From an uncultured Actinomycetes bacterium (lineage in GTDB: Bacteria > Actinomycetota > Thermoleophilia > UBA2241): a stretch of DNA of 64,000 nucleotides. A model generated the notes under the pieces. It did no database searches. It was not told where the DNA came from and worked only from the letters and a program-made list of their open reading frames with translations. The stretch lies in the NCBI GenBank assembly GCA_963767005.1, contig CAVYCN010000019.1, positions 96,001-160,000 on the forward strand, given 5' to 3'. This document shows, piece by piece, positions 4,503-37,003 of this stretch; the first letter of the stretch is position 1, and every line of letters starts with the position of its first letter. The translations under genes and the position numbers were made by a program.

Positions 4503-4531
4503 TCCGACCTCCACCTTGTCGCCGCCCATGA

Positions 4532-6607: not shown

Positions 6608-6642
6608 TCGTGCGCCTCCTCAGGCAGCAGCGCGCGCTGCCC

Positions 6643-8450: not shown

Positions 8451-8501
8451 ATCGTATACGAAGTGTATGGAGAAGCTATTCTGTGGAGAGTGCGCTGTCA
8501 A
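8451..8501 (-). promoter_or_regulatory. sigma70-type promoter plus direct-repeat operator (site A)
   Basis: Minus strand: TTGACA-17 nt-TAGCTT followed by TCCATAC-ACTT-CGTATAC. Confidence 0.75.
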
Positions 8502-8564
8502 GGGCGTGTCACGAGAACGACCGCGCGACGAACCGCGCGGAGATCGGGCTCCAGGGGCGGCGGG

Positions 8565-9236
8565 TCAGTAGGCATCCGTCCTCACGTCCGCGGCAACCTC
8601 GTAGCGCATCCCGGTCGCGGCGCGGATATCGTCGACGGTGTAGCCGCGGGCGGTCTCGCTGAGCACGAAACCCGCGCCGGGCGAGCGCCGAAAGAGCGCG
8701 CGCTCGGTGATGATCACGTCGCACTCCCCCACGCCCGTGAGCGGCAGAGTGCACCGCTGGACGAGCTTCGGCGATCCGTCCTTGGCGCAGTGCTCCGTGA
8801 GCACGTAGACGCGCCGTGCGCCGGCGACCAGGTCCATCGCCCCGCCCATGCCGATCTTGCGGCCGGGCATCTCGTAGTTGGCGATGTTGCCGTCCGCGTC
8901 GACCTGGAGCGTGCCGATCATGGTGGCGTCGATGTGCCCCCCGCGGATCATGGCAAAGGACACGGCGCTGTCGACGTAGCACCCGCCGGGCAGGAGGGTC
9001 ACCGGCAGGTTGCCGGCGTTCCTGCGGTCCGGCTCCTCGGTCCCGGGCGGCGACACCGGGCCGGCCCTGACGATGCCGTTCTCGGCCTGGATCACCACGT
9101 CGTGCCCGCCGGGCAGGTAGTTGGCGACCAGCATCGGGATGCCGGCGCCGAGATTGATCACGTCGCCGTCGTGCAGCTCGGCCGCCGCCCGCGCGGCGAT
9201 GACGCACCTGCTGTCAGCCGCTGGCTCCACGTGCAT
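8565..9236 (-). CDS. 3-oxoacid CoA-transferase subunit B (family I)
   Basis: INLGAGIP, QAENG (catalytic Glu position), IRGGHID, GMGGAMDL. Confidence 0.9.
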   Translation of the reverse strand: MHVEPAADSRCVIAARAAAELHDGDVINLGAGIPMLVANYLPGGHDVVIQAENGIVRAGPVSPPGTEEPDRRNAGNLPVTLLPGGCYVDSAVSFAMIRGGHIDATMIGTLQVDADGNIANYEMPGRKIGMGGAMDLVAGARRVYVLTEHCAKDGSPKLVQRCTLPLTGVGECDVIITERALFRRSPGAGFVLSETARGYTVDDIRAATGMRYEVAADVRTDAY

Positions 9237-9933
9237 GGGGACCTCCTTTCGCCGGTCCGGCGGCTGCGGCCGTAGCGGCGCTCGCGCGCACGACCGCGTC
9301 GACGAAGATCCCACAGGTCTGGATGCGCTCGGGGTCGAGCTCGCCGGGGCAGCAGACATGGTCGACCTCGGCGATGACGTACTCGGCGCAGCTCGCGACG
9401 ATCGGCGCGTAGTTGCGAGCGGTCCCGCGATGGCACAGGTTGCCGACCGTGTCGCCGGCGTGCGCCCGCACGAGACCGACGTCGACGCGCACCGCCCGCT
9501 CCCAGAAGTAGGTCGTGCCGTCGATCGTCACGTGCTCCTTGCCTTCGGCCACGGCAGTGCCCACCCCGGTGGGCGTCAGAAAACCACCGAGGCCGGCCCC
9601 GCCGCAGCGCAACATCTCGATGAGATTGCCCTGCGGCACCCATACAAGCTCGAGCAGCCCCCGCTCCACCGCCCCCGTCACGGCGGGGGTGTAGCCGAGG
9701 TGGCAGCAGTAGAGCCTGGCGACCTTGCCGGCCAACACGAGCTCGACGATGCCGTCGTCGCCGAACCCGGCGTCGTTGGCGTAGATCGTGAGGTCGCCGA
9801 CGTCGCTGTCGCGCAGCGCCCGGATCAGCGTGAGCGGGGCGCCCTGGCCCAGGAACCCGCCGATCGCCAGCGTCATGCCGGAAGCCACCCGCGACACGGC
9901 GGCGTCGAGCGAGAGCACCTTGTTGCAAGCCAT
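9214..9933 (-). CDS. 3-oxoacid CoA-transferase subunit A (family I)
   Basis: GMTLAIGGFLGQGAP, PQGNLIEMLRCGGAGLGGFLTPTGVGT, GNL..RGTARNY. Confidence 0.9.
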   Translation of the reverse strand: MACNKVLSLDAAVSRVASGMTLAIGGFLGQGAPLTLIRALRDSDVGDLTIYANDAGFGDDGIVELVLAGKVARLYCCHLGYTPAVTGAVERGLLELVWVPQGNLIEMLRCGGAGLGGFLTPTGVGTAVAEGKEHVTIDGTTYFWERAVRVDVGLVRAHAGDTVGNLCHRGTARNYAPIVASCAEYVIAEVDHVCCPGELDPERIQTCGIFVDAVVRASAATAAAAGPAKGGPHARGASG

Positions 9934-10230
9934 CCTCAACCCCCCTCGCCGTCGACTCCCGAAAGCAGAGTCCCGGCCGCGCCGCCAGGCCTGCGCGTCC
10001 GCGCCGGACCACGTCACGTCGAGCACGTCGATGAGGCGCGCCAAGCCCTTCGCCAGACCCTCCGCGGTCCGCTCGTCGGCGTCGATCCCGATCGTGATCG
10101 CGGTCCTCTGCTCCTCGATGTTGCGAGCCGTAAAGTGCTCGATGTTCACACCGCGACGCGCGACCTGCCCGGCGACACGGGCAAGGACCGCCGGGCGGTT
10201 AAGGACGAGAGCTCGCAGACAGACCCTCAC
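9934..10230 (-). CDS. ACT-domain (IlvN-like) small protein; reads in frame into CoA-transferase A
   Basis: GTG 10230 with AAGGGGAG RBS; LVLNRPAVLARVAGQVARRGVNIE...LARLIDVLDV resembles the IlvN/IlvH ACT domain; own stop is missing, so the 3' end is approximate. Confidence 0.65.
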
Positions 10231-11152
10231 GGCTCCCCTTCCACTTCGGTCGTGTCGGTCGCCGTGACCGGGAAGCAAGCCTCCATCGCGTCGAGGTAGG
10301 CCCATTGCTCGGCGATCGCGGCACGTGTGGCGTCAGGTCGAACGCGTCGGACCTGAAGCGGCCCTGGCGCGAGACGTAGTCTTCGAGGGCCGTCCCATCG
10401 GGCCGCGCGTTGATGCGGAACCGGCGGCCCGCGAAGACCTCGTAAAGCGGGAACAGGCCGCAGCCCACCGCCAGCCGACCAGGTCGACGCCCTCGGCCGG
10501 CTCGGACTTCCAGCCGGTCGGGCAGGGCGAGAGCATCACCAGGAAGCGAAAGCCGCGCAGCCGGCGGGCGAGCCGTACCTTGCGCAGCAAGTCCTCGCGG
10601 TGGGCCAGCGACAGCGTCGCCGCGTAGGGGACCCGGTGCGCTGCCAACATCGCCATGATGTCCTTCTTGGGCTCGGCCTTGCCGTCGGCGTCGTGCTGGT
10701 CTTCGCGCCCGGCGGCGTCGCGCTGGAGCGCTGCCCGCCGGTGTTGCCGTAGATCTCGTTGTCGTAGCAGATGTAGATCATGTCCTCGTTGCGCTCGGCG
10801 GCCGCCGACAGAGTCGCCATGCCGATGTCGTACGTGCCGCCGTCGCCGGCCCAGCAGACCGTCGGCGCCGTCTCATCGTTCATCGCGCGCACGCGCGCGA
10901 CCCCGGTGGCCACCGACGGCGAGCTGGCGAAGGTCGTGGCGACGGCGGGCACGCCGAAGGCGGTGGTCGGGAAATAGCCGGGCGTGACCGACGCGCAGCA
11001 GGCAGGGACGATCATCGTCGGCCGCTCGGCGCCCAGCGCCTCGTCGAGCCATTGCAGGCCGAGCGACATGCCGCAGCCCGCGCAGTCCCGTTGCCGGAGC
11101 GCCGCAGCGCGTCGTCGCTGCGAGGCCGGACGCCGTCGCCCGCGCCGCTCAT
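10227..11152 (-). CDS. porB: 2-oxoacid:ferredoxin oxidoreductase beta subunit (frameshifted)
   Basis: CAGCG, TPP motif WAGDGGTYDIG...YDNEIYGNTGGQRSS, SPCPTGW, spread over several frames. Confidence 0.85.
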
Positions 11153-12324
11153 GGGACCACCTCCCCGACGAAGACCGCATCGGCCGCGGCGGCGCGGTCG
11201 TCGAGGTCATCGAGGATGCCCTCGATGACCGCGGGCGCCACGTCGCTGCCGCCGAGTCCCACGATGTAGTCCTGGAGCAGCACGTCGGGCCGCGCGCCGA
11301 GGCTCGTGGCGATCTCGGCCCAGAAGATGCCGCCGGAGCCCGGCGAGTGGTTGCGGTCGAGCACCGCCACGCGCCGCGCCGAGCCGAGCGCCGTGACGAA
11401 GGCCCGCCTCAGGAAGGGCCGGAAGAGCTTGAGCCTTACCAGGCCGACTTTCTCGCCGGCCGCCCGCCGCGCCGCGACGACCTCTCTGGCGGTCTCGGCC
11501 ATCGTGTTGCAGGCGACGAGCACCACGTCGGCGTCCTCCGTGTGCTCCGCCGAGAAGGCCGCGGCCGGCCGGCGGCCGAAGACCTGCTCGAACTCGTCGA
11601 GCGCGTCGGACATCGCCTCGGGCACCCTGTCCATGGCCGCCTGGATCTCGGCTCGCTGCCGCTGCGTGTCGTGCGGCCAGGTCATGCCGCCGTACATCCT
11701 CGGGTGGGCGAAGTCGAGCCGATGCGGCAGGTCGAGCGGCGGCAGGTACTCGTCGACCAGCTCCTGCTCGGGCAGGTCGACGACCATCTGCGTGTGCGAC
11801 AGCAGAAAGCCGTCCTGCGCGACCAGCGCCGGCAGGAGCACCCGGTGGTCCTCGGCCACCCGGAAGGCGACCAGGATCGTGTCGACCAGGTCCTGGTGCG
11901 AGTCGCAGTAGAACTGCAGCCATGGCGCATCCCGCAGGGCGAGGCTGTCGCCCTGGTCGATCCAGATGTTCCACGGCGGGCCCAGCGTGCGGTTGGAGGC
12001 GACCATCACGATCGGCAGGCGGTAGTAGCCCGCCGCGAAGACGTTCTCGGTCATGTAGAGGAGCCCGTTGGAGGAGCTCGCCGTGAACGAGCGGGCACCC
12101 GCCAGCGAGCCGCCGATGCAGACGCCCATGGCGCTGTGCTCGGACTCGACCGGCACGACGCTGCCCTTGGCGAAGGAGTGCGCCATGAGGTACTCGATGA
12201 TCTCGGTCTGCGGCGTGATGGGATAGACGCCCGAGCAGCAGCCGCGCGCGCCGCGGTTGGCCTCGCCCGCCGCCGCCAGCGCATAGCCGGCGGCGTTATT
12301 GCCGGTGACGTAGGCGCGGCTCAT
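11149..12324 (-). CDS. porA: 2-oxoacid:ferredoxin oxidoreductase alpha subunit
   Basis: TGNNAAGYA, YPITPQTE, VESEHSAM, TASSSNGLLYM, GLGGSD. Confidence 0.9.
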   Translation of the reverse strand: MSRAYVTGNNAAGYALAAAGEANRGARGCCSGVYPITPQTEIIEYLMAHSFAKGSVVPVESEHSAMGVCIGGSLAGARSFTASSSNGLLYMTENVFAAGYYRLPIVMVASNRTLGPPWNIWIDQGDSLALRDAPWLQFYCDSHQDLVDTILVAFRVAEDHRVLLPALVAQDGFLLSHTQMVVDLPEQELVDEYLPPLDLPHRLDFAHPRMYGGMTWPHDTQRQRAEIQAAMDRVPEAMSDALDEFEQVFGRRPAAAFSAEHTEDADVVLVACNTMAETAREVVAARRAAGEKVGLVRLKLFRPFLRRAFVTALGSARRVAVLDRNHSPGSGGIFWAEIATSLGARPDVLLQDYIVGLGGSDVAPAVIEGILDDLDDRAAAADAVFVGEVVP

Positions 12325-14550
12325 CCGGCCACCGCCGTGACGCCGTCCTCCATGACGATGGCCCCGCGAGGACACTGCGCGACGCACAGACCCGCAGCCC
12401 TTGCAGTACTCGTAGTCGAACACGTAACCGCCCTCCCTGTCGAGGCAGACGACTCCCTCGGGGCAGTAGGCCACGCACGTGTCGCACTCGTTGCAGGCGC
12501 CACAGCTCAGGCAGCGGTCGGCTTCGGCGACCGTCGCGTCCTCGCCGGCCCGTCGACCAGGCCGCGGCGGACCTCGAGGAAGCTGTGCCGCCGCTCGTCG
12601 AGGGGCGCCAGGGCGCCTCTGTGCTGCGGGCTGCGGGGGAAGCGCGCGAAGTCGACCACGTCGGTTCCGGCGAGCTCGTGCGGCTCCGCGGGGGCGAGCT
12701 CGCGGCCGGCCAGCAGCGCGTCGATGCACGCGGCCGCCAGCCGGCCGCTGCCCACGCCCGCCGCCACGGTGCCCTCGGCGACGGCGAGGTCGCCGGCGAC
12801 GAAGAGCGGCGCGTCCGTGCTCGCGTCGGCGACGCGGCCGTCCACGATCTCGGCGCCCTCGGGCAGGACGGACAGGTCCGCCGCCTGCCCGAGCGCCAGC
12901 AGCACGCGATCGCAGGGCACCTCGGCGAGGCGTCGCCCTCGAGGGGGACGGCGCGACGCCGACCGGACTCATCGGGCTCCCCGAGCCGCATGCGCCGGCA
13001 GACCAGGACGAGCCCGTCGTCGGCCTTGTCGAGCCGGACGGGCGCCTGGAGCTCGTCGAGCTCGATGCCTTCTTCGAGCGCCTCGTCGACCTCTTCGGCG
13101 ATCGCCGGCATCTCCGCGCGGGTGCGGCGATAGACCACGCGCACCTGTCGCGCGCCGAGACGCGCCGCGCAGCGCGCGGCGTCCATCGCCGTGTTGCCGC
13201 CACCCAGCACGACGACGCTGGCGCCGCGCACCGACGCCCTGCCCTTGCGGGCGCCGTCGAGGAACTCGAGGCCCTGCACGACCCTGCCGCCGGGCACGCT
13301 GCCCAGATCGAGCGCGGGCTGCTCTGCAGCCCGGTCGCCACGAGCACGGCGGCGTACTCACGGCGCAACCGGCCAAGACCCTCGCGATCGACGGCACGAC
13401 CGACCTCGACCTCGACCCCATGACGCACGATGAAGTCGATCTCGCGGTCGAGCACGTCGCGCGGCAGTCGATACGGCGGGATGCCGCGACGCAGCAGGCC
13501 GCCCGTCTCGTCGGCCGCCTCGAAGACCGTCACCCGGTAGCCGGCGCGCGCGAGGTGATAGGCGGCGCTCAGCCCGGCCGGGCCCGAGCCGACGACGGCG
13601 ACGCGTTCGAGCCGCGACGGTCCGCACGTTCGCGGCCACGTGCCCCGTTGGGCGACCGCGCGCTCGATCTCGCGCACGTTCACCGCCTCGTCGAGCTGCG
13701 AGCGGTTGCAGGCGGCCATGCACGGCGCCGGGCAGACGCGGCCGCAGATGCCCGGGAACGGCGTCGTGTGCAGCAGGGTCGCCAGGGCGCCGTCGCAGTC
13801 CCCGCGGACCGCCGCCTGCACGAAGCCGCGCACGTCGTTGCCCGCGGGACAGGCCGCGTCGCAGCGCGCCGCCAGCCGGCGGCCGCGCGGCCGGCGCGAG
13901 GCCCACTCTCCCGTACGGGTCGTGGGAAGGCCGCCCACATCCTCGTCGAGAAACCCCACGGCGGCGGTGCGGCGAGCGCGACGGCCGGCGGACCGCAGCG
14001 GCCCGGCAGCTCCTGCGCTGCACCTCGTCGAACGCCGCCCGTGCGGCGGCGAGGTTTCCGCCGGCGAACCGCGCCTCGCGCAGGGCGGCCTCGACGTCCG
14101 CGAGCGCGAGGCCCAGCAGCTTGGCCACGGCGCCGAGGATCGTCGTGTTGACGATCGGCAGGGCGGTGGTCCCGAGATGGTTGGCGGCGGCGATGGCGTC
14201 GGCGTCGACCGTGGCCACGCGCCGGCCCGGGAAGAGCGTCGCGAAGGCGCCGGGCGGCCGCGGCGTGTTGAGCATCAGCCACCCCCCGGGCTTCAGCCCC
14301 GCGGCGACCGGCGGGGCGATCAGCGACGGTCGATGACGACGACGTGGTCGGGCTCCGCGATGGGCAGGTGCGCCGTGATCTCGTTCGCGTCGACCCGGAC
14401 GAAGGACTGCACCGGGGCCCCCGCGCGCTCGGCGCCGTAGACGCCGAACGCCTGCACGTAGTCGCCCCGCAGAAAGTAGGCGCCGGCGATCAGCTTCGCG
14501 AGCGTGACGCCGCCGCGACCGCCGCGACCCTGGATCACGATCTCGAGCAT
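12321..14550 (-). CDS. Apparent fusion of OFOR gamma subunit, GltD-like FAD/NAD(P) oxidoreductase and 2x[4Fe-4S] delta domain (frameshifted)
   Basis: GRGGRGGVT / YGAERAGAPV (gamma); CPAGNDV, GICGRVCPAPC, GSGPAGL, GGGNTAMD (GltD); CLSCGACNECDTCVAYCP and CKGCG..CP (ferredoxin). Confidence 0.75.
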
Positions 14551-14557
14551 GGCCCGA

Positions 14558-15475
14558 TCACCTCGCCGCGTAGACCGGGTAGCACCAGCGCCGGTAGGCG
14601 GTAGCTTGCCGCGCACCACGGCGGCGTAGAGGTCGCTCACCGCCGCCGTCACCGGCCCCGCTCGTCCGTCGCCCACGGTGCGGTGGTCGATCTCGTAGAC
14701 GGGCGTGATCTCGGCCGCCGTCCCGCACAGGAAGACCTCGTCGGAGACGTAGAGCTCGCTGCGGTTCACCGACCGCTCGACGACCTCGAGACCGAGCTCC
14801 GCCACGGCCAGCTCCATCACGCACTCCCGGGTGATGCCGGCCAGCAGGTCGTCGCCGGCAGCCGGCGTGACCAGGGGCCATCCTGGACCAGGAAGATGTT
14901 CTCGCCCGTGCCCTCGGCCACGTGGCCGGACGCCGTCAGCGTCAGGGCTTCGTCGAAGCCGTTGGCCATGGCCTCGTATCGCGCGAGGGCCATGGCGGAG
15001 TACATGCCGCCGATCTTGGCCCGCGCCGGCGCGACGTTGCCTTCGGGACGCCGCCAGGAGCTCACGCAGCAGCGGATGCCGCCGGCGGCGAGGTACCGGC
15101 CCATCGGCACGTAGAAGATGACCAGGCTGTCCTCGAGGTCGGCCCGCCACACGCCGATCGCTTCGTGCTCTTGAAGACGATGGGACGCAGGTGCACGTCG
15201 ACCCTGACGCCGTCCCGCGCCAGGAGCGCCACGCTGATCGCGCAGAGCTCGTCCTCGGAATGCGGCAGCGCCATGTCGTAGAATCCAGCGGAACGATGGA
15301 GGCGGGAGTAGTGGCGATCGGCGCGGAACAGATAGAGCTCCTCGGTGTCGGCGTCCCAGTAGGCGCGGATGCCCTCGAACACGCTCGTGCCGTAGTTGAG
15401 AGCATGGCTTTCGATGCCGAACGTCAGCCCTCCGAGGGCGACGAACCGACCATCCAGAAACGCCGATACCTCCAT
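14558..15475 (-). CDS. ilvE: Branched-chain amino acid aminotransferase, class IV (frameshifted)
   Basis: ALNYGTSVFEGIRAY, ARAKIGGMY, VAEGTGENIF, LAGITR, FLCGTAAEITPV. Confidence 0.88.
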
Positions 15476-15501
15476 GACCCTCCTCGCCGTGCGCATGCCG
15501 A

Positions 15502-15538
15502 TTGACGCAAAGAGTAACTGTATATATCAATGTGTCAA
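15502..15538. promoter_or_regulatory. Overlapping divergent promoters of ilvE and gntR with an AT-rich candidate operator
   Basis: TTGACG on + (15502) and TTGACA on - (15538) flank GTAACTGTATATATCAAT. Confidence 0.6.
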
Positions 15539-15603
15539 GCCGGGCCCTGGCGTGCGTTCGAACGCAGGTGGCGGGCATCCGTCGACGAGGGGAGCGAAGC
15601 GCG

Positions 15604-16354
15604 ATGAGATCTTCCAGAGATCCCTCGGCGTTCTCGTCGGCCGTGCCCCCGGCACCGGTGAGCGCGGTGAGTCCGAGCGACCTCACCGCCGCCCTGATCC
15701 GCGGCATGATCTACTCGGGCGAGCTCACGCCCGGCGATTGGCTGCCGCCCGGTCGCGAGCTGGCCGACCACCTGGGCATCTCTGTGCTCACGCTGAGAGT
15801 GGCGCTGAAGTCGCTCGAGGGCGCCGGCTTCATCGTGGCACGAGCAGAGGAGCGCACGGCGGATCGCGCGTGGTCGACATCGAGACCCTCACCCGCTGCT
15901 GGACCGATTGGATGCGCGACAAGGTGCACGACATCGACGACCTCTGGGAGTTCCGCGAGATCGTCGAGGCGAACATCGCCTCGCTCGCGGCCGGGCATCG
16001 CAGCGCCGCAGAGCTGCATGCCATCGAGGCGGCCTGGGCGGCGGCGGCCACCGACAGCCACGCCGCGTTCCTGCGCTGGAACGCCGTGTTCCACGACGCG
16101 CTCGCGACGGCGTCGCACAGCTGGCGCCTGACCGAAGCCATGCTCGCCGTGCGCCGCGAACTCTTCCTGCCGGTAGCGCTCGCTACTGCGCAAGCATCGG
16201 GCCGAAGAGCTGCGCGATTCGCACACCCAGATCCTCGAAGCGATGCGTCTGCGCCGGCCGGCGCGGGCCGCCGACGCCATGCGCAGTCACCTGGCCAACA
16301 CCCGTCGATGGCGACGACGTGCTGGCCGAGACGCTCGGCGCACGGCGCCTGTAG
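15604..16354 (+). CDS. GntR (FadR-type) transcriptional regulator (frameshifted)
   Basis: GELTPGDWLPPGRELADHLGISVLTLRVALKSLE wHTH; FCD-like DLWEFREIVE...FHDALA...AMRSHL. Confidence 0.8.
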
Positions 16355-16390
16355 GCCGCGCGGTCGGCGCCGCCGTCAGACGGCGGCGGG

Positions 16391-17091
16391 CTACCTGGTC
16401 GTCGCCGCTCCGCGCCCGCCCCGACCCCCTGCGAAGATGCGCGCATCGAGGGCGACACAGCCCCGGGCCAAAGCGATCCGGGGTTCAAGTCGATCTCGGC
16501 GATCTCGGTGTGACGACCAGAAGGTCGCCGATCCTGACGAGACGTCGGCGACCGCGTCGCGGTGAACCGGCGGCTGGCCGCGGAAGCCTCGAGCGGCCGC
16601 GCGGCGGCAGCTCGGTGGCGTCTCCAGGCCGTCTGGGCGTCGCAACGACGCGACGCGGAACACAACGTCGGCCAGCAGCTCGGCCAACACGCCGCCCAGC
16701 CCGCCATCACCGTCGGCCCGAAGGTGGCGTCGCGCACGGCGCCAACGATCGACTCGCGACCGCCGAAGACGTGGCCGGCCACGAGGACGCCGTCGATACG
16801 CGCACCCGGCAGCGCGTGCTCACGGCGCAGCCGAGCGTGGCCAGGCCCGCTCGCAGCCCCGTCTCGTCGCTCAGACCGATGACCACGCCGCCGGCGACGG
16901 TCTTGTGGACCACGTCGCGGGAGATGACCTTCAGGACGACCGGGTAGCCGATGCGCGCGGCGATGCCGGCAACGGCCTCGGCGGCAGAGCCCATGCCGTG
17001 CTCGACGCAGGAGATGCCGCAGAGCAGAAGGAGCGCGGCGGCTTCCGGCTCCAGCAGCATGCTCGTCGAGCTGCTCCGCGGTGACGCTCAC
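16391..17091 (-). CDS. ADP-forming acyl-CoA synthetase beta (ATP-grasp) subunit (frameshifted)
   Basis: LLEPEAAALL, IGYPVVLKVISRDVVHKT..GGV, GAVRDATFGPTVMAG, EIAEIDLNP. Confidence 0.78.
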
Positions 17092-18480
17092 GATCCCACC
17101 TCCGCTCCCCGTCGTTTCTCCGCATACCAGCAGCCGGCGGCGATCGCCCGCATCGCCCGCTCCGGCGATGGGAAGACGCGGGCACGCCCAGCCGCTGCAT
17201 CCTGCGCCGTTCGACCTGTTCGACGGCGCCGCCGCCGTAGTACGCGGCGCAGACGGCGGCCCGCGGACTTCGGCGGCCAGCTCGGCGGCCAGCTCCGCCG
17301 CCCCCGGGACCGGGTCGCCGAAGATCAGCAGGATCGTGTCGACGAACCCGGCGGCGTCGGCCAGCCGCGCCGCCGTGCGGAACTGGTCCACACCGATCGT
17401 CGCCAGGTCGAGCGGATTGGCGAACGAGCCCCACTCGGCGAGGTCCATGCCCCTGAGCCCCGCGACGAGGTCGGGCGGCAGGACGGGCAGGACGAGGCCG
17501 TGCGCGTCGCCCACGTCGGCGGCGAGCGCGCAGCTACCGCCGGACGAGGAGACGACGAGCACCCTGCGCGCCCGGTAACGGGCGCACGCTCGCGAGGATC
17601 TTGGCGGCGTCGTAGAAGGATTCGGAATCGTCGGCCGCGCCACGCCGTACTCGCGGCGGGCCCGCTCGAACACCTGATCGGAGCCGGCGAGCGACCCGGT
17701 GTGCGAGGCGACGGCCTCGCGGCCGCGCTGCGAGCGCCCGCACTTGGACACAGCGAGCGGCTTCTTCAAGGCCACGCTCCTGGCGGCCGCCACGAAGCGC
17801 GGACCGTCGGACACGCCCTCGAGGTACAGGGCCACGGCCCGCGTGTCGTCGTCGTCGGCCAGCAGGTCCGCACCGCGTCCGCCTGCGCAGATGTCGGCCT
17901 GGTTGCCGAGACTGATCGAGGCACTGACGCCGAGGCCGTCGTCCTGGGCCCAGTCGGTGATCACGCCGCCACGACCGTGCCGCTCTGCCCGACCACCGCG
18001 AGGGGCCCGTGCTCGGTCGTCGCCCGGCCAGAACACGGCGCACAACCGGTTGGGCCCGTACGACACGCCCTGGATGTTGAGCCCGAACAGGCGCAGGCCG
18101 CGCTCGCGCGCGATGGCCACGAGCTCCCTGTCGAACTCGGGCTTGCCGGAGACTGACTCGCGCCCGCCGGCGCTGATCACGATCGCTCCGGCCGCTCCCT
18201 TGTCGGCGGCCTCGTGCAGGACGCCCGGCACGAACCGGGCTCGCGCGGCGATCACCACGAGGTCGATCTCGCCGGGGATGTCCGTGACCGCGGGGTAGCA
18301 CGTGAGGCCCGACACCTTCTCGGCCCTGGGGTTGACCGGGAAAACCTCGCCGGTGAACCCCCCGGCCAGGATCGACGGCACCAGCACGCCGCTGAACTTG
18401 CTCGGGTCCTGCGACGCACCGACCACGGCGACGCGTCGCGCCTTCAGCATCCGCCAGATGGCGTCCGTGTCACCCACCAC
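17088..18480 (-). CDS. ADP-forming acyl-CoA synthetase alpha (CoA-binding) subunit (frameshifted)
   Basis: VAVVGASQDPSK, FPVNP, SLGNQAD, AVASHTGSLAG (phospho-His), SSSGG, NPLDL. Confidence 0.85.
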
Positions 18481-18537
18481 GCTCTCCTTCACTCGTGCAC
18501 AGTCCGAAACGGAAGAGGACGCCCCCGTTCATCACGA

Positions 18538-21418: not shown

Positions 21419-21438
21419 CTCGTCGCACGCTCCCCTTG

Positions 21439-22720: not shown

Positions 22721-22801
22721 CTGCCTCTCCTGCACGATCGGGGCTTGGCGTAGTGGGCAAGCGCAACGCGCCGGTCACCGACTTGCCCGCCCGCGGGGGC
22801 T

Positions 22802-22851
22802 GGATGCGTATCGTATGCAATCAGCATACCGAGCGCGGTGATGGCGGTCAA
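22802..22851 (-). promoter_or_regulatory. Internal sigma70-type promoter plus operator (site B)
   Basis: Minus strand: TTGACC-17 nt-TATGCT then TGCATAC-GATA-CGCATCC. Confidence 0.7.
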
Positions 22852-23883
22852 CGGAAGATGAACCCTTCCCCGACGGGGTCGTCGGGGTCGACGAAGAAGG
22901 TGGCCGTACCGGTAAGGAAGGCCGCGCCCGTGACCTCGGGCACGACGGCCCGGTGACGACCGACGCCTGAGCGCGCGACGACGGACACGGCGAAGCACGT
23001 GCCGAGGATGCTCTCGATGACGATGGTCTCGCCGTCGCCGAGCTGGCCGGCATCATGCAGCAGGGCGGCCCGGGCGCTGACCCCCGTGCCGGTCGGCGAG
23101 CGGTCGACCTCGCCCTCGGCAAAGACGCAGACGTGCCTGCTGTGGTGGCGCTCGTCGGCCGGCGGGCCGGTGAAGATGACGCCGTAGAGGAAGCCCAGGT
23201 CGGGGGCGTTCGGGTCGTCGATCGTGAGCTGGGCCGCGACCGCCTGCTTGACCAGCTTTCCCACACAGACCAGGCGATCGTGCTGGCCTGGCACCAGCGA
23301 CAGGCCGAGGTCGGCCGCGTCGCAGAAGGCGTAGTAGGCGCCGCCGAAGGCGACGTCGCAGACCGTCGTGCCGATGCCCTCGAGCCTCACGTCGACGCCG
23401 CGCCGGTAGACGAACGACGGCACGTTGGCGAAGCTCACCGTGTGCACGGTCCCGCCCGCCGCCGTCGCGCGGGCCACCACGAGACCGGCCGGCGTGTCGG
23501 TTCTCACCGAGCGACTCGGCGCCCTCGCCGGCCGCGACCATGCCCGTCTCCAGGAGCACCTTCGTGAAGCCGATGATGCCGTGCCCGCACATGGTGCTGA
23601 AGCCCTCGTTGTGCAGGAACAGCACGCCGCAGTCGCTACCCTCCGTCACCGGGGCGGTCGGGATCGCGCCGTACATGTCGGCATGACCGCGCGGCTCCCA
23701 CATCAGCGTCCGCCGCAGGCCGTCGAGATGCTCCTGGGCGTAGCGACGTTTGGCGAGCATCGTGTCGCCCGGGATCGGCGGCAGCCCCTCGACGATCACC
23801 CGCAGGGGCTCGCCGGCGGCGTGCACGTCGATGGTCCGCAGGACCGGTGAACCCCCGGGTACGTGCGGCGTGACCTGCGCCAT
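22848..23883 (-). CDS. Proline racemase superfamily, Cys/Thr type (trans-3-hydroxy-L-proline dehydratase-like); one frameshift near 23510
   Basis: [28 protein letters not shown] (Cys), DRSPTGTG (Thr in place of the second Cys). Confidence 0.85.
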
Positions 23884-25268
23884 CAGCCGTAGAAGGGCGG
23901 ATCGCGGAACTGCAGCCCCATTGCTTCCAGACCTGCCCTTGCCTCTTCGTATGCCGCGCGGATCTCCGGGCCGGGGCGCCGCGTCGCTACCTCGTAGCAG
24001 TCCTGATAGCGCAGACCGAGCGGCGGGTCCTTGAGCTTGTCCTCGTAGGCGTCGAGCAGCCGCAGGACGATCGCGTTGACCTCGGCCCGGGGCAGACCGA
24101 CCACGGACCGCCCGACCTCGGCGGCAAGCAACGGCTCCGCCGGCGAGACGTGATCGGGGTGCGTGGCGCGCGCGGCGGGGCCGGCCTCGACGCTGCCGCC
24201 GCTCACCACGCAGGTTGCGGCCATCGCCGCCGCCTCGTACAGGCTCATCGTCGTCCCGGGCCCGGCCGCGTAGACACCCGACTCGAGACAGGGCACGTCG
24301 CTATGGGTGGTGACCGCCTGCATCGCCACCGACCGCACCCAGATGACGTCGCGGCCGGCGACGGACTGCGTCTCGAAGTGCGTCACGTACGGGTGCTGGA
24401 CGGCGGCCTGAAGGACGAGCAGCGCGAAGAAGTGATAGGCGGCGAGCGTGATCGCACAGCCGGCCGGACCACCCGCGTAGCCGCCGATCACCTGCCCGGT
24501 GCCGCCCAGCACGTGGCGACCCTGCGAGCGTGCGAACGCGACCCGGCTCAGATTGTCGAAGTCGATCTTGAGCTCGGCGATGTTGCCGATCTCGGTCACG
24601 TCGTGGCTGCCGGCGAGGGCGCCGCCGGCGATGTTCCCCTGCGCCTTGACGCCGGTCGGCACGAGGTTGGAGATGCCCAGACCGGGGCGCCCGGCGGCGT
24701 GGCGCGCCGCCTCCCGCGTCATGGCGACCGTGCGCAGGCACCCCTCGACCTCGAGAGGGCTGCCGGCGACGACCGGCAGGCCGTCGATCTGCGCCATCGC
24801 CGGCGAGGCGACGGCGTCGATGTGGGGCAGCTCGCAATAGGCTTGCGTGAGGCTCGCGAAGACGTCGTCGCTGGTGACCGCCGCGCCGCAGGCGCCGAGC
24901 GAGAAGAACGGCTCGATCGCGCTCTCGGGGCGGCGGGTCGGGATCGCCCTGGCCTGCTGCCCCTCGCCCAGGACGACGCCGCGCGGCGCTTCGGCCAGCG
25001 CCTGGTCGAGCTCGAGCTCGTCGAACGCGACCACTCGCTCGGTGTCGACGCAGTAGACCCCGACGCGCAGGAACAGCTCGCGGCCGGCCTGCCAGACGCG
25101 TTCGGCGAGGTCGTCGTCACTCGGGATCGGCGTCTCGGGCGTGTAGACGATCCCGTGCTTCTTGACGAGCTCGCGGACCGCCGGGATGAAGCGCTTGAGG
25201 TCGAAGTCGCCCTGGTTACAGATCTCGCCGCTCACGGCGCGGCGGTAGAAGTCGACGCTCGAGAGCAT
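23883..25268 (-). CDS. mtmB: MtmB-family (monomethylamine methyltransferase-like) protein, non-pyrrolysine
   Basis: 461 aa; [52 protein letters not shown] motifs; TCC (Ser) at the apparent Pyl site. Confidence 0.82.
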
Positions 25269-25274
25269 CCGCCA

Positions 25275-25926
25275 TCAGCTCCTCTGGCGCCGGGCCAGGG
25301 CGACGGCGTCGGCCGCCGTCTCTCCGTAGCCGTCGGCCCCGATCTCGCGCGCCCACTCCGCGGTGACGGCCGCACCGCCGACCATGACGAAGAAGTCGTC
25401 CCTCCTGCCCGCCGCGGCCAGATGCTCGAGGACCTCGCGCTGCTGCGGGATGGTCGTCGACATGAGGGCGCACACGGCGATCACCTCGGCGCGCGCATCG
25501 CCGGCGGCCGAGACAAAGCGCGACGCGGGAACATCGACGCCGAGGTCGACCACCTCGAACCCCGAGGCCTTCAGCATAGTGGCGACGATGTTCTTGCCGA
25601 GCGAGTGGATGTCGCCCTTGACGGTGCCGATCACGACCTTGCCCCTGGCGTCGGCGCGCGTGGCGCCCTCGAGCAGCGGCTCGACCAGGTCCATGCCGGC
25701 CTGCCAGGCTTCGGCCGCGAGCATCATCTCGGGCAGGTAGACCTCTTCGCGACGGAACTGCTCGCCGACCTCGCGGATGCCGGCCACGAGCCCGTCGTCG
25801 AGCAGGGCGCGCGGCGCAAGACCGGCCTCGAGACCCTCCCGTACGAGCGCCGGCACCCGGTCGAAGTCGGCCTCGACGAAGGCCGCCACGATGCGGCAAC
25901 CCCCGCTCGGCCTGCGCATCACTCAT
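25275..25926 (-). CDS. Corrinoid (B12-binding) methyltransferase cognate protein; frameshift near the 5' end
   Basis: YLPEMMLAAEA, GTVKGDIHSLGKNIV (DxHxxG), DLGVDVP, ALMSTT, MVGGAAVT, IGADGY. Confidence 0.92.
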
Positions 25927-26100
25927 ACCGTACCTTCCTGTCGTTCCGTCACGTCGAGGTCAGGGGTCCCGCCGGCCCAGTGCAGACACCGGCCAGCAGC
26001 GGTCGGCCGCAGTCGCGGCCGCCGGCCAGGGTCCACGAGGCGCCGCTCCACGAGCGTCGCCGGGGAGTCCGAGTACTTCCCGTGAGGCCTTCGTGTCGCT

Positions 26101-28018
<1,918 letters not shown>

Positions 28019-28022
<4 letters not shown>

Positions 28023-28909
28023 ATCACTGCCAACCGGCTCAGCTCGTCGCCGGCGAGGACCCGCGACAGGGCATCGGCGGTGAGGTTGAGTGACACGGCC
28101 AGGCACGTGATGCCGAGCGCCGGCAGCATGGTGCCCCACGGCGCCACGGTGATCAGGGCACGGTTCTCGGCCACCATCAGCCCCCAGTCCGGCGTCGGCG
28201 GCTGCACGCCGAGGCCGAGGAAGCTGAGCGTGGCGACGAACAGGATGCCGTAGGTGAGCCGCAGGCCGAACTCGGCGAGGGTCGGCCCCGAGACGTTGGG
28301 CAGCACCTCGCGGAAGATGATCGACAGGTCCCGTTCGCCGCGCGCCTGCGCGGACAGGACATAGGGGTTGACGATCACCGACTGGGCCGTGCCGCGCACC
28401 ACCCGCCCCATGCCCGGCGCGTACACGAGCGCGACGACAGTGATCAGCACCGTATCGGAGGAGCCGACCGCGCCGATGATCACGAGCACGATGAGCAGCG
28501 GCGGCAGGGTGAGCATCACGTCGAACACCTTGGAGATCACGACGTCGGGCCAGCGGCCCCAGTAGGCGGCGAACAGGCCGAGGCTGCCGCCGACGATGAG
28601 CGAGAGCGTCACGGCGACGAGCGGGATGAGCAGCACGGTCACGCCGCCGTGCAGGAAACGGCTCAGGACGTCGCGCCCGAGGGCGTCGGTACCGAACCAG
28701 TGCGCCGCCGACGAGGGCGAGCCCGGAGCGCCGGCGTCGTAGTTCGTGCCGGGCCCGAAGAAGCGGCCGAGCACGATGAGCCCGATCATGAAGGCGCCCA
28801 GGCCGATGCCGATCTTGCCTTCCGTGGTCTGCAGCACGCCGCGGAGCACGCTGCGCCGCGGTGCGACGCTCGCCACGGAAGCGGCGGCCGATGATTCTGC
28901 AATGCTCAT
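28019..28909 (-). CDS. Peptide ABC transporter permease (DppC/OppC-like)
   Basis: HWFGTDALGRDVLSR, LSFLGLGVQPPTPDWG. Confidence 0.92.
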
Positions 28910-28912
28910 CTC

Positions 28913-29953
28913 TCAGCCGTTCCTGAGTCGGGGGTTGTAGAAGGTCACAAGGACGTCGGCGGCGACTCCGATGGCGATGAAGAGGACGCCACAGAGCATC
29001 GCGACCGCCTGGACCACGAGCAGATCGCCGTCGGCGATGGACTGGACGAGCAGCGTGCCCATGCCCGGGAAGCCGAACACGTTCTCGACGATGATGACAC
29101 CACCGACGAGCCAGATCAGGTCGAGGGCCACGGCGTTGATGATCGGGCCCGAGGCGTTCGGCATGAGGTGCTTGTAGACGATGGTGCGACGCGACAGTCC
29201 GCGCAGGACCGCCGCGCGCGCGTAGGGTGTCGTCATCGTCTCGCGCACGGAGACCTGCGTGAGCCGCGAGATGTGCGGCAGCAGCGAGATCACCAGCGTG
29301 GTGGTCGGCAGGATGAAGGCCTGGATCTTGCCGGACACCCCCCCGAACGACATGCCGGTGCTGTCGACCGGTGTCAGGCCGAGCTTCACGGACAGCGCGT
29401 AGATCAACACGATGCCGATGACGAAGACCGGGATCGCGGCCACCGACACGTTCATGATGGAGAGGCTGAGCTCGCGCACCCGCGAGCCGGGTCTGGCAAG
29501 GTAGACGCCGAAGGCGATCGCGATCGGCAGGGCGACGATGATCGAGGTCAGCGCCAGGATGAACGTATTGACGAACTTCGGCATGACGATGCCGCTCACG
29601 GGATCGTTCGTGACCGCCGACGTGCCCCAGTCGCCGTGCAGGAACCCGACGAGCCACTGCTCGTACTGCACGATCACCGGCCGGTCGAGCCCGTGCGCGC
29701 GGTTGAAGTCGGAGAGCTGCTGCGGCGTGGCCTGGCGACCGAGGACGCGGCGCGCCACGTTGATGCCCAGCACGTGCGTCGAGGCGAAGACGATCAGCGA
29801 GATCAGCAGCAGCGTGACCAGGGCGGGAATGAGGCGCGACCGCACGAGCAGCCACGCCACCGACGCCGCACCCCCCCTGCCGGGGGGTGCGGCGAACGCT
29901 TCGGTGGAAGCCAGCGCCGCCTCGGGTAGAGACGGTTCCGAACCTTCCGTCAT
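28913..29953 (-). CDS. Peptide ABC transporter permease (DppB/OppB-like)
   Basis: GLDRPVIVQY, GDWGTS, ARAAVLRGLS, VENVFGFPGMG. Confidence 0.92.
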   Translation of the reverse strand: MTEGSEPSLPEAALASTEAFAAPPGRGGAASVAWLLVRSRLIPALVTLLLISLIVFASTHVLGINVARRVLGRQATPQQLSDFNRAHGLDRPVIVQYEQWLVGFLHGDWGTSAVTNDPVSGIVMPKFVNTFILALTSIIVALPIAIAFGVYLARPGSRVRELSLSIMNVSVAAIPVFVIGIVLIYALSVKLGLTPVDSTGMSFGGVSGKIQAFILPTTTLVISLLPHISRLTQVSVRETMTTPYARAAVLRGLSRRTIVYKHLMPNASGPIINAVALDLIWLVGGVIIVENVFGFPGMGTLLVQSIADGDLLVVQAVAMLCGVLFIAIGVAADVLVTFYNPRLRNG

Positions 29954-31572
29954 GCGTAGAACCCGCACTGCCGGAAGTCGAGCATGGAGAACGTCCAGGG
30001 TACGACCCTGGTGCCGACCCTCGAGGTCCAGAGGCGATTGAGGTAGGCGGGGATCATCTCGCCGCTGCCGCCGTCACCGGAGGCCATCCATTCGCAGCAC
30101 TCGGTGGTCGCCGCCGTGAGCGCGTCGCCGGTCGACGCGTACGCCTTGGTGAGCAGCGCGTCCATCTTGGCGCTCTTCCACTTGGACTCGTTCCACGGCG
30201 CGCTGCTCTGGCAGTTGAGCGCCATGGTCTCGACGGGATGACGCCGGTTCCAGTCGTCGACGCAGAACGGATCCTTCATCCACACCGTGTCCCAATAGGT
30301 GTCGGCCGGGATCTGCTTGACGGTGATGCGGAAGGGCGAGCCCTTGGTCGCGGCCGCGAAGGCCAGGCTGAAGTTGGCGTGCAGCGCGTCGCCGGGGGCC
30401 TTCAGGTTCAGGTCGATGCCGCTGGCGTAGCCGGCCTCGGTCATGAGCTGGGTCGCCTTGGCGCGATCCATCTTCGTCGTCGCGATCAGCGTGTCGTTCA
30501 TGAACGGGTCGTCCATCGCGACCCAGGCGTCGGGCGACGCGAACCCCTGCCCGCCGTAGGCGATGTTGATGACGTTGTCGCGGTCGATCGAGAGCTTGAG
30601 GGCCTGGCGCACCCGGGGGTCGCTGAACGGCTTGGTCGTACAGTCGCACACGACGCAGTACGTGATGCCCTTCTCGTAGGGGTTGACCTGCAGCTTGGAG
30701 TTGGCCTTGACCACGGCGAGCTGGTCGAACGAGACCTGGGTCACGCTCGCCGCGCCCGACGCGACCGACTGCAGCTTGGTCGACTCTTCGGGGTCCTGGA
30801 TGCCGCGCACGGTGTCGACGATCGGATAGCCCGTCATCCAGTAGGCCGGGTTCTTGTCGACCTCGAAGGACTGACCTTCGTTGTAGAACTTGAGCTTGAA
30901 CGGGCCGGTCCCGATCCCCTTGGCGTAGTCGGCTTCCTTGCTGTTCGCCTTGACGAGGTAGCACTGCTGGTTGGACAGCGCCAGCAGCAGGAGCGAGTCG
31001 GGGCGCTTGAGCTTGAGCTTGAGCGTCAGGTCGTCGACGACGACGACGCCGTTCTTGTCGATGCTCGAGTCGAGACGCTGCATCATGCCCGAGCCGCCCT
31101 CGGGCGACATGATCCGCTCGATCGACCAGGCGGCGTCCTTCGCCGTGAACGGCGTGCCGTCGTGCCAGGTGACGTTGGGGCGCAGATGGAAGGTGTACTC
31201 CGTGAGCTCGGGATTGACGTCCCAGGTCTGCGCCAGGCGCGGCACCGGCTGGAACTTGAAGTCGTAGGACACAAGACCTTCGCGCAGCATGCCCTCGAGC
31301 GCGTCCTGGCCGTCGTCGATGTTCTTGAGCGGATCGAGGCCGTCCTTGGGGAACAGCTGATCGGTCGCGAACGTGAAGACCCCGCCGCGCTTGATGGCCC
31401 TCGACGAGGCCGTCGGCGCGGCGCCCGTCCCTGAACCGCTGCTCCCGCAAGCGGCCAGCAGGCCGGAGCTTGCGAGCCCCGCTCCCAGGCCGACGACAGC
31501 GCCGGCCTGCAGCAGTTGACGCCGCGTCAGGCGTACGCCCAGGGGGCCTTCTGCTTCACCTCGTGACTTCAC
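29950..31572 (-). CDS. Family-5 ABC substrate-binding lipoprotein with Tat signal
   Basis: LTRRQLLQ twin-arginine motif, LLAAC lipobox, WHDGTPFTAKD, GTGPFKL, PFSDPRVRQAL. Confidence 0.92.
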   Translation of the reverse strand: MKSRGEAEGPLGVRLTRRQLLQAGAVVGLGAGLASSGLLAACGSSGSGTGAAPTASSRAIKRGGVFTFATDQLFPKDGLDPLKNIDDGQDALEGMLREGLVSYDFKFQPVPRLAQTWDVNPELTEYTFHLRPNVTWHDGTPFTAKDAAWSIERIMSPEGGSGMMQRLDSSIDKNGVVVVDDLTLKLKLKRPDSLLLLALSNQQCYLVKANSKEADYAKGIGTGPFKLKFYNEGQSFEVDKNPAYWMTGYPIVDTVRGIQDPEESTKLQSVASGAASVTQVSFDQLAVVKANSKLQVNPYEKGITYCVVCDCTTKPFSDPRVRQALKLSIDRDNVINIAYGGQGFASPDAWVAMDDPFMNDTLIATTKMDRAKATQLMTEAGYASGIDLNLKAPGDALHANFSLAFAAATKGSPFRITVKQIPADTYWDTVWMKDPFCVDDWNRRHPVETMALNCQSSAPWNESKWKSAKMDALLTKAYASTGDALTAATTECCEWMASGDGGSGEMIPAYLNRLWTSRVGTRVVPWTFSMLDFRQCGFYA

Positions 31573-31806
31573 TGGTTACCTCCCTGTCGTCGTCGTGCTC
31601 GGGGACGATGTGTGGGGAACGGGCCGGGACCCTGGAACGAACCTGTGCGCTCCCCCCGGATGCGCGGACCGCGCCGGAAGCTCGTCGCGCCACCTGCGGC
31701 GGCGCCTTCTGCTACCCGGCCGCGGGGTCGGCTCACGTCATGGACCCTCCTTTGCGGAATGTCTGAACGGCTGCGGCTTGCCGGGCCTGTGTGGCGTACA
31801 CTTCTG

Positions 31807-31844
31807 GTATGCGCAGAGTATGCGTAGCCCTCCGTGGTCGTCAA
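31807..31844 (-). promoter_or_regulatory. sigma70-type promoter plus operator (site C), in the divergent region
   Basis: Minus strand: TTGACG-16 nt-CATACT, overlapped by CGCATAC-TCTG-CGCATAC. Confidence 0.7.
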
Positions 31845-31914
31845 GAACGTCGTGCAGCGAGGTTCGCGGGACCTCCTGATCGGACCGGGGCGCGGCGTCG
31901 CGAAAGGAGAGACC

Positions 31915-32829
31915 GTGGGTGAGAAGGTCGGGTTCATCGGGCTCGGTATCATGGGCCGGCCGATGGCGAGGAACCTGCTGAAGGCCGGTCACGACCTCGT
32001 GGTGCTCGACGTCGACCCGCGCGCCGTGGCGGCGCTGGTCGCCGACGGGGCCCGGGGTGCCGCGTCGCCGGCCGAGGTGACCGACCGCGCGCCGTGGGTC
32101 GTCACGATGCTGCCCGGCGGGCCGGCGGTCGAGGAGGTCGTCCTGGGGGCCGACGGGGTGCTCACCGCCGCCCGGGCGGACACCGTGCTGGTCGACATGA
32201 GCAGCACGTCGCCCGGCACCGCCAGGACCGTCGCCGCGGCCCTCGAGGCGCGCGGCGCCTCGTCCCTCGACGCTCCGGTCAGCGGCGGCGAGCCGGGCGC
32301 GGTGTCCGGTGAGCTCGTGATCATGGCCGGAGGGCAGCCCGACGTGTTCGCGGCGGCCGCGCCGCTCTTCGCGGCGCTCGGAAAGCGCGCCGTGCTGGTC
32401 GGACCGAGCGGCGCCGGCCAGACCGCGAAGCTGGTCAACCAGCTCCTCGTCGCCGCCCACCTCGAAGCCATGGCGGAGGGCCTCGCGCTGGCCTCGAGCG
32501 CGCACGTCGACCCGCGCCTGGTCCTGGAAGCGATCAGCGGCGGGCTCGCCGATTCGGCCGTGCTCGCCGCCAAGGGTCCGCTGCTCCTCGCTCGCGACTT
32601 CGCGCCCGGCGCCAGGATCGAGATCCATCGCAAGGACATGAAGAACGTGCTCGCCGCGGCCCGCGACCTGGGGCTGACGCTGCCGGTCGCAGAGCTGCTC
32701 GAGGTCATGTTCGACACGCTGGTCGGACAGGGCAAGGGTGGGCTCGACCACGTCGCGCTGGCGCAGGTCGTCGAGGCCATGAACGGCATCGAGATCGGCG
32801 GCGCCGGCAGGCTCGGCTACCTCCCTTGA
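31915..32829 (+). CDS. Beta-hydroxyacid dehydrogenase family (2-hydroxy-3-oxopropionate reductase / 3-hydroxyisobutyrate dehydrogenase-like)
   Basis: GFIGLGIMGRPMA, DAPVSGG, GAGQTAKLVNQ, HRKDM; AAGGAG RBS. Confidence 0.9.
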   Translation: MGEKVGFIGLGIMGRPMARNLLKAGHDLVVLDVDPRAVAALVADGARGAASPAEVTDRAPWVVTMLPGGPAVEEVVLGADGVLTAARADTVLVDMSSTSPGTARTVAAALEARGASSLDAPVSGGEPGAVSGELVIMAGGQPDVFAAAAPLFAALGKRAVLVGPSGAGQTAKLVNQLLVAAHLEAMAEGLALASSAHVDPRLVLEAISGGLADSAVLAAKGPLLLARDFAPGARIEIHRKDMKNVLAAARDLGLTLPVAELLEVMFDTLVGQGKGGLDHVALAQVVEAMNGIEIGGAGRLGYLP

Positions 32830-32876
32830 CAGCCTCCGGCTTGCCACCTACGATGTGCATACACACCGTATACGAT
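32826..32876 (+). promoter_or_regulatory. gntR promoter plus operator (site D)
   Basis: TTGACA-17 nt-TACGAT then TGCATAC-ACAC-CGTATAC; 18 of 21 nt identical to site A. Confidence 0.78.
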
Positions 32877-34681: not shown

Positions 34682-34736
34682 GAGGTCACACGCGCGCGCA
34701 GGGCGCTCGCTCGAGATCACGAGAGGGAGACGGGGC

Positions 34737-35771: not shown

Positions 35772-35800
35772 ACGCCGCCCTCCGCGCCTAGGAGCACGCC

Positions 35801-36999
<1,199 letters not shown>

Positions 37000-37003
<4 letters not shown>

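Follow-up and report, generated by a model that had tools for sequence, protein, structure and literature searches.

Among described relatives of the regulator considered here, Atu1419 of Agrobacterium fabrum is an FCD-containing GntR protein of the VanR group that contacts DNA through Glu34, Arg45, Thr46 and Arg49 and holds zinc with Asn137, His141, His192 and His214 (PMC7797058); its site is ATGTATACAT, as quoted in PMC9728974. DipR of Alcaligenes faecalis recognizes GWATAC at six promoters, one of them its own (PMC11472048), and NanR of Escherichia coli places several dimers on close boxes and binds tightly only where two or more of these stand at a set spacing (PMC8012715). Even-palindrome groups of the FadR subfamily (HypR, Bpet4349, Arth_3541) were described by Suvorova et al. 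in 2015, with a supplement listing TGCATACA and TGTATGCA sites for regulators that have the recognition helix discussed below (PMC4494728); the HypR of Streptomyces has a different motif (PMC6608401). Here we describe a candidate regulon in a 64,000-nucleotide stretch (the window; positions 96,001 to 160,000 of contig CAVYCN010000019.1) from an uncultured Actinomycetes bacterium of the Thermoleophilia, in which four promoters, A to D, carry short boxes in strict phase and one of them precedes a gntR gene at 32956. The arrays of boxes are likely operators of this VanR-group GntR, judging from the sequence. Our literature search, made largely among openly accessible papers, returned no paper on this regulator or its gene set.

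Phased boxes at four promoters

The promoters, their boxes and the gene of the regulator are as follows.

8454..8501, minus strand: promoter A; -35 TTGACA (8496-8501), 17-bp spacer, weak -10 TAGCTT (8473-8478); boxes CCATAC (8465-8470) and GTATAC (8454-8459); 18-mer TCCATAC-ACTT-CGTATAC (8454-8471)
22802..22851, minus strand: promoter B; -35 TTGACC (22846-22851), 17-bp spacer, -10 TATGCT (22823-22828); boxes GTATGC (22824-22829), GCATAC (22813-22818) and GCATCC (22802-22807); 18-mer TGCATAC-GATA-CGCATCC (22802-22819)
31796..31844, minus strand: promoter C; -35 TTGACG (31839-31844), 16-bp spacer, -10 CATACT (31817-31822), or alternatively TACTCT at 18-bp spacing; boxes GCATAC (31818-31823), GCATAC (31807-31812) and a weaker GTGTAC (31796-31801); 18-mer CGCATAC-TCTG-CGCATAC (31807-31824)
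32826..32873, plus strand: promoter D, of gntR; -35 TTGACA (32826-32831), 17-bp spacer, -10 TACGAT (32849-32854); boxes GCATAC (32857-32862) and GTATAC (32868-32873); 18-mer TGCATAC-ACAC-CGTATAC (32856-32873)
32956..33624, plus strand: predicted GntR repressor of the VanR group, 222 residues, winged helix-turn-helix and FCD domains

An initial annotation of this DNA had proposed the four 18-mers as one operator, and all of them are found at these coordinates and strands; A and D indeed share 18 of 21 nucleotides, and each site lies at or just after a sigma70-type -10 element, as had been claimed. The pattern put forward for them, YGCATAC-N4-CGYATAC, is exact at C and D and has one mismatch each at A and B. 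Every site is preceded by TTGACN, 16-18 bp before a TANNNT-type hexamer. The description of the promoters as near-consensus suits B, C and D, which are the only consensus promoters in the 20-39 kb part of the window (0.6 ± 0.9 expected), and was overstated for A, where a perfect -35 is joined to a -10 that matches at 3 of 6 positions and the promoter is not returned by our promoter scan. The predicted 5′ leaders are long at A (about 340 nt, 8131-8470) and C (about 240 nt, 31573-31810); a riboswitch search of window positions 1-45000 gave no Rfam match at gathering scores.

The asserted rarity of the motif proved real. In the genome that holds the window (3.44 Mb, about 71% G+C) the exact pattern occurs twice, at C and D, and with at most one mismatch per half it occurs 7 times, four of these being A-D. 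Because the box resembles a -10 element, a promoter-matched control was used: when 93 promoter-like intergenic sites were scored, D (21.9), C (18.1) and A (16.2) took ranks 1-3, followed by a site at 9.6, while B is missing from this set because the gene caller overlooked its broken first gene. The same resemblance raises the alternative that nothing binds the repeats, which would have arisen as by-products of -10 elements or through the copying of promoter segments; overlap between the -10 and the first box is frequent (TAGTAT, CATACT), and the similarity of A and D might reflect copying. Just 5 of the 93 promoter-like sites contain one exact box or more, however, and the boxes and their pitch are kept across four genera in which the spacers between boxes vary. 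This conservation largely refutes the by-product explanation, which we regard as very improbable.

The boxes are better read as two to four pseudo-palindromic GYATRC units at 11-bp pitch than as the head-to-tail direct repeat that the initial annotation had described, since both orientations of the unit are found. Two boxes had been overlooked there: at B an inverted GTATGC, 11 bp upstream, and at C the weaker GTGTAC, 11 bp downstream. Over 28 promoters, 32 pairs of boxes lie 11 bp apart, 12 pairs 22 bp, 3 pairs 33 bp and 9 pairs some other distance; at 14 held-out promoters the corresponding numbers are 14, 8, 2 and 4. One 11-bp pair per site is a product of the search, but the 22- and 33-bp pairs are not. 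GTATSC-N5-GTATAC is common to 19 promoters, B included, and in 15-16 of them continues as N5-GCAT, giving a dyad-symmetric triple of which the supposed direct repeat is two-thirds. The same GntR might still read a true head-to-tail repeat, as NanR or MocR-type proteins do: A, C and D can be read as same-orientation repeats, and direct-repeat binders exist in the FadR subfamily (PMC4494728). Against this, B and 18 further promoters have oppositely oriented flanking boxes (left G19/T18/A19/T18, right G16/C15/A15/T15 of 19), the 18-mer falls on the transcribed strand at 8 training sites and on the other strand at 7, and both Atu1419 and DipR bind GTATAC as a palindrome. We consider head-to-tail reading improbable and keep to phased palindromic boxes, which also give each array at least two boxes at a fixed spacing, the arrangement that NanR needs.

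The predicted repressor and its candidate sites in relatives

The product of gntR matches PF00392 (55 bits) and PF07729 (93 bits), both above cut-off. Its predicted DNA-contact residues E42, R53, T54 and R57 and zinc ligands D140, H144, H188 and H210 are invariant in 9/9 orthologues, as is the recognition helix S52-R53-T54-P55-x-R57-E58, which contains the Arg expected to read the G of the box; the zinc-site positions align to N137/H141/H192/H214 of Atu1419, and the N-terminal arm is short, variable and not conserved. The best PDB hits (7XP0, 6Z74 and 4P9F) and the length of the protein fit a six-helix effector domain; the 6Z74 series, the second-best hit, we take to be Atu1419 itself, which fits the residue numbers. 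A contig scan with this single GntR as query returned only two close relatives, and in a profile search of 1.84 billion proteins the matches tailed off gradually, with 297 at E <= 1e-30 and the 10 best either unnamed or generically named.

We compared 89 genomes of the family (G labels denote genomes, G000 being the one with the window, and L labels loci). These relatives are kin, so that no test statistic is claimed for conservation counts. A matrix was trained on 9 cluster promoters from other genera. The initial annotation had suggested looking for the motif in genome-wide and orthologous upstream DNA, and the outcome agrees with its expectation: the four best matches to the matrix in 3.4 Mb are D, A, C and B, in this order (21.3-19.1 bits), and the motif follows the operons as they are rearranged. 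An orthologue of GntR is present in 10/89 genomes (50-89% identity). In G011 and G007, too, gntR is preceded by site D; in G033, G028, G023 and G017 the genes are rearranged and sites still head kce-at3-mttB, opp and acd-gntR, so that over these six genomes sites are found before gntR, opp, acd-gntR and kce-at3-mttB units in differing gene orders. Promoter B and the kce promoter at locus L151 are almost identical. The held-out genomes have 3 (G079), 3 (G085) and 1 (G089) promoter sites. Two exact 17-mer patterns matched 8 of the 10 genomes with a GntR orthologue, with 13/14 sites at cluster promoters, whereas genomes lacking the orthologue matched at the rate of a reversed-pattern control (11/79 versus 12/79). 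Metagenomes gave the same picture. Of 247 kce loci 80 were taken; where these extended 120 bases or more upstream, 11/12 close kce orthologues and 0/60 distant ones are preceded by a site (20-29 bits). Around paralogous mtmB genes (8 loci, 131 kb) there was no match of at least 12 bits. The mttB orthologue occurs in 8/89 genomes, 7 of them with a GntR match, and close hydA orthologues are found in G085 and G017 only, inside the cluster both times; those of G085 continue an acd-gntR unit with a site, and in G017 the upstream DNA lies off the contig.

A regulator encoded elsewhere might bind the arrays, with gntR merely one of its targets. GTATAC cores do serve many GntR groups, TGTATACA alone occurring 183 times in the supplement of PMC4494728, and isolated strong matches exist in two genomes without the orthologue (G018, G021). 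Several observations speak against such a regulator. Only one of nine GntR-domain matches in the genome, the protein at 32956, has the SRTPxRE helix; of the matches in orthologue-free genomes, 7 of the 11 examined lie inside genes; and the two kce copies that have no gntR close by (G010, L153) also lack a site. We rejected one candidate, a second GntR encoded between A and B, because its helix differs and because it was not found in the fetched clusters of G033, G028, G079 and G085, which keep the motif. Control by an unlinked protein thus seems to us even less probable than head-to-tail binding. ArgR was considered as a binder because the strong match in G018 (L113, G018:C2:197578) lies upstream of an argC-like gene and may be an arginine-repressor box, which it resembles. 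ArgR was dropped, though not excluded, since no argC turned up when G000 was searched with a crude motif. Two further GntR genes of G000, near-identical and of the HutC type, have near-identical upstream DNA on separate contigs (C9:21200 and C6:27698), by duplication or contamination of the bin.

We therefore favor control by the linked regulator: GntR at 32956 probably binds the four promoter arrays and represses its own and three catabolic operons until an inducer binds. One dimer would sit on each box, as for Atu1419 and DipR, and neighboring dimers on one face of the helix would bind cooperatively and block RNA polymerase, as the example of NanR suggests. Occlusion is the expected mode of repression because the boxes cover -10 to about +15, and binding of the inducer would release all four units. 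With high probability the regulon is real and belongs to a known class of switch; since GntR repressors of GTATAC boxes are well known, the switch itself is unsurprising. Of the 24-kb regulon claimed at the outset, the arrays that follow rearranged orthologous operons and co-occur with GntR stand, but the second GntR and its own operon (8.6-16.3 kb) lie inside that span.

A number of findings weigh against this picture. GTATAC overlaps the -10 word TATACT. The training sites were initially located with the pattern from the window, so that only where they lie, and not how they read, is independent evidence, and the 11 metagenome sites amount to 8 distinct sequences. The fifth matrix match, inside a gene, reaches 18.1 bits, close to the 19.1 of B; G079 and G085 have one off-target match each, resembling a plain -10; and G034 and G085 have no exact match although the GntR orthologue is present. 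The content of the regulon varies, too: G007 and G011 contain no close mttB, mtmB or oppA orthologues and keep only gntR-kce-tdh, and an mtmB match is absent from G023, making mtmB dispensable. Among the relatives fetched there is no orthologous promoter for site A, which is for this reason the least tested member. Finally, eight target genes are frameshifted in this assembly, with intact copies in relatives.

Beside these, two loci deserve mention. A candidate distal target in G011 is a 20-bit two-box match (L125:10071-10088; G011:C5:334071) after TTGACA, some 120 bp upstream of an APC permease gene. At L140 (G010:C42), the gene upstream of kce is the one that lies upstream of the gntR locus in G007, and promoter, operator and gntR are all missing.

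Predicted target genes and an outline of their possible pathway

The predicted units of the window are these.

2721..8130, minus strand: predicted operon A; APC permease (6643-8130), hydantoinase/lactamase A (4532-6607) and B (2721-4529)
8565..16335: separate unit; second GntR/FCD gene on the plus strand (about 15640-16335, frameshifted), divergent from a minus-strand operon for a branched-chain transaminase, 2-oxoacid oxidoreductase, ACT protein and CoA-transferase
16400..22720, minus strand: predicted operon B; class III aminotransferase (21439-22720), pyrrolysine-free MttB homologue (about 19975-21418), M20 hydrolase, ADP-forming acyl-CoA ligase alpha and beta
within 22848..31572, minus strand: predicted operon C; family-5 ABC transporter (oppA 29950-31572, oppB, oppC, oppD/F), corrinoid protein (25275-25922), pyrrolysine-free MtmB homologue (23883-25268), proline-racemase-family enzyme with Cys/Thr motifs (frameshifted)
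31915..32829, plus strand: 2-hydroxy-3-oxopropionate reductase-like dehydrogenase, divergent from site C, with no clear promoter of its own
33767..38198, plus strand: rest of predicted operon D; BKACE/kce (33767-34681), threonine dehydrogenase (34737-35771), glycine C-acetyltransferase, class I aminotransferase (frameshifted)

The dehydrogenase at 31915 is a possible member of the regulon, as a 72% homologue lies in the L160 cluster. The intergenic site of the second GntR is unlike the GYATRC arrays, and part of it is conserved in G023. While gntR and all four operators are intact in this assembly, all five genes of operon B are frameshifted here and intact in G023. About two dozen frameshifts and nearly no stop codons fall between 10200 and 23500; alignments of the broken genes with orthologues contain 4 stops in 8501 aligned residues, and of 26 indel calls common to at least three orthologues, some of which are alignment noise, 2 lie in base runs. 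The 10-kb bin over 14-24 kb has a coding density of 0.35, the lowest of 334 bins (median 0.89). Frameshifts are also seen in orthologous genes of G028, G033, G085 and G089. At the edge of the window, 68-2512 belongs to the gene of a 1407-residue protein whose C-terminal part has no Pfam match and is 90% identical in G011, where this large gene directly adjoins the gntR promoter (G011:C6:126907-127112); hence a 30-kb block (window 2513-32825) was either inserted here or deleted there.

The enzymes of the four units can be arranged into a pathway, an outline that we would place just short of probable: an N-methylated amino acid is demethylated, its skeleton transaminated and cleaved by BKACE, and a ligase makes ATP. 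The compound would enter the cell in free, peptide or lactam form, and peptide or lactam would be hydrolyzed. The MttB and MtmB homologues would then remove N-methyl groups via the corrinoid protein, probably onto tetrahydrofolate. Transamination at C3 would be followed by BKACE cleavage to acetoacetate and acyl-CoA, from which the ADP-forming ligase would make ATP; alternatively, the substrate of the transaminase may be the aminoacyl-CoA product, as in the case of Kat (PMC3149608).

Individual enzymes are in line with these steps to differing degrees. An N-terminal stretch of the intact G023 aminotransferase is nearly identical to that of the beta-phenylalanine aminotransferase 4AO9 (its best hit is 6K8H), and omega- and beta-transaminases are among its nearest structures. 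A class III aminotransferase gene adjoins kce at 12/15 close and 18/65 distant loci; the distant ones also hold hydantoinase A/B (12-14) and 3-hydroxyacyl dehydrogenase (13). BKACE itself (PF05853, 285 bits) has the HxH, R and ED motifs, with H52, H54, R249, E253 and D254 invariant in 10/10. The MtmB homologue is an open frame of 461 residues with no in-frame amber and with Ser opposite chain position 202, which we take to be the position of pyrrolysine. As for described activities, BKACE enzymes form acetoacetate and an acyl-CoA from a beta-keto acid and acetyl-CoA (PMC12871164, PMC4922564, bioRxiv 2023.02.15.528638), and one pyrrolysine-free MtmB is a quaternary-amine demethylase, the sole function demonstrated for its family as of PMC13044021. 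In a pairwise alignment of the G023 MttB orthologue, MtgB residues Y97/R312/H348/F356 are replaced by V/T/gap/A, with an Arg one residue on. The lack of these betaine-binding residues counts against a simple betaine as substrate, and glycine betaine was rejected because the MtgB binding motif is not matched. The genome encodes a corrinoid activator and two pterin-binding proteins and has no match to acetyl-CoA synthase; we accordingly rejected acetogenesis as the methyl sink, and the methyl groups probably go to folate.

The racemase-family gene contains STMCGH and DRSPTG, whose Cys/Thr pair we take to be the catalytic pair of trans-3-hydroxy-L-proline dehydratase; it scores 356 bits on NF045511 (cut-off 540), and its best PDB hits are 6R76 and 7QPO. 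This gene and a PutA beside the G033 cluster hint at a hydroxyproline-like compound, which would leave BKACE unexplained. The best single guess at the substrate is a compound resembling hydroxyproline betaine, a doubtful one.

Among relatives of these genes, MtmB homologues number four in this genome, one with an in-frame TAG (G000:C3:80410-81756), and occur in 70/89 family genomes, mostly without the stop. The oppA-type binding protein has a weak best PDB hit, AgaA (E 4e-33). In relatives such as L058 (10588-12908), an opine-dehydrogenase-like gene and an M19 dipeptidase gene stand between transporter and corrinoid gene. A distant kce locus, L199, also holds permeases, a GntR and a GcvT-type flavoprotein, the last a possible aerobic stand-in for the corrinoid enzymes. 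In G023, L263 (G023:C51:55001-75000) combines paralogous hydantoinase B/A, a kce (63%), 3-hydroxyacyl dehydrogenase, ABC transporter and ADP-forming ligase genes, with no operator match.

Comparison with known regulators and pathways

What is new here is the regulator, the strictly phased arrays and the uncharacterised pathway outlined by them. Taken as a whole, and tentatively, the arrays may delimit a new anaerobic pathway of uncultured Actinomycetota, in which a repressor stacking up to four dimers on one DNA face may sense C1-folate as Atu1419 does. Two pyrrolysine-free corrinoid methyltransferases of new specificity would take the N-methyl groups off a beta-amino acid or its lactam, whose skeleton would be fermented by a beta-transaminase, BKACE and an ADP-forming ligase. 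The regulon shows which scattered genes belong together. Finding a pyrrolysine-free MtmB and an MttB without the betaine motif in one unit with carbon-skeleton enzymes narrows the screen for the substrate, in which the repressor could serve as ligand sensor, and arrays of up to four boxes at a strict 11 bp offer a clean test case for cooperative GntR binding.

Atu1419 has the same combination of winged helix-turn-helix and FCD domains, a short GTATAC-core palindrome and folate-dependent demethylation targets. E42/R53/T54/R57 match the residues that read ATGTATACAT, the zinc ligands match as well, and the autorepression of Atu1419 would have its counterpart in the boxes at D. The two proteins are nevertheless only distantly similar (E 6e-14). 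Atu1419 binds as a tetramer to single 10-bp palindromes far apart, whereas here two to four boxes abut at 11 bp, and its targets are genes for aromatic O-demethylation, with methylene-tetrahydrofolate as effector. DipR, likened here by description and not by sequence, is again a GntR/FadR repressor with a box at every promoter of its catabolic cluster and a motif kept across rearranged clusters, but it is described with single boxes per site and controls an aerobic dipicolinate monooxygenase cluster. NanR reads (GGTATA)3 direct repeats and has a 32-residue N-terminal extension, in contrast to the dyad-symmetric boxes and short arm found here. With the groups of Suvorova et al. the locus shares TGTATACA, TGCATACA and TGTATGCA cores together with SRTPxRE/SRIPxRE helices, while the extra elements described for those groups are weaker half-sites 7-12 nt away, not arrays of full boxes; GntR at 32956 and its targets are not among the 36 supplement rows considered (PMC4494728).

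Turning to the enzymes, the MttB and MtmB homologues belong to the same Pfam families as MtgB/MtpB/MtcB/MtyB and MtqB, respectively, and their intact copies likewise have no in-frame amber (PMC13080624, PMC13044021). The corrinoid protein beside mtmB is a further likeness to the MtgB/MtqB systems. Unlike in those systems, one regulon here covers both methyltransferases as well as a transaminase, a BKACE and an ADP-forming ligase; MtqB is likened by description. The BKACE differs from the Kce of lysine fermentation in scoring 241.6 bits on NF052387, below the cut-off of 382, and in having Ile in place of Glu14, a residue that presumably has a role in Kce; lysine aminomutase genes were not seen in the clusters. 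With the Kce/Kat pair of variant lysine fermentation the locus nonetheless shares the linkage of a BKACE to a HemL-like class III beta-transaminase (PMC3149608).

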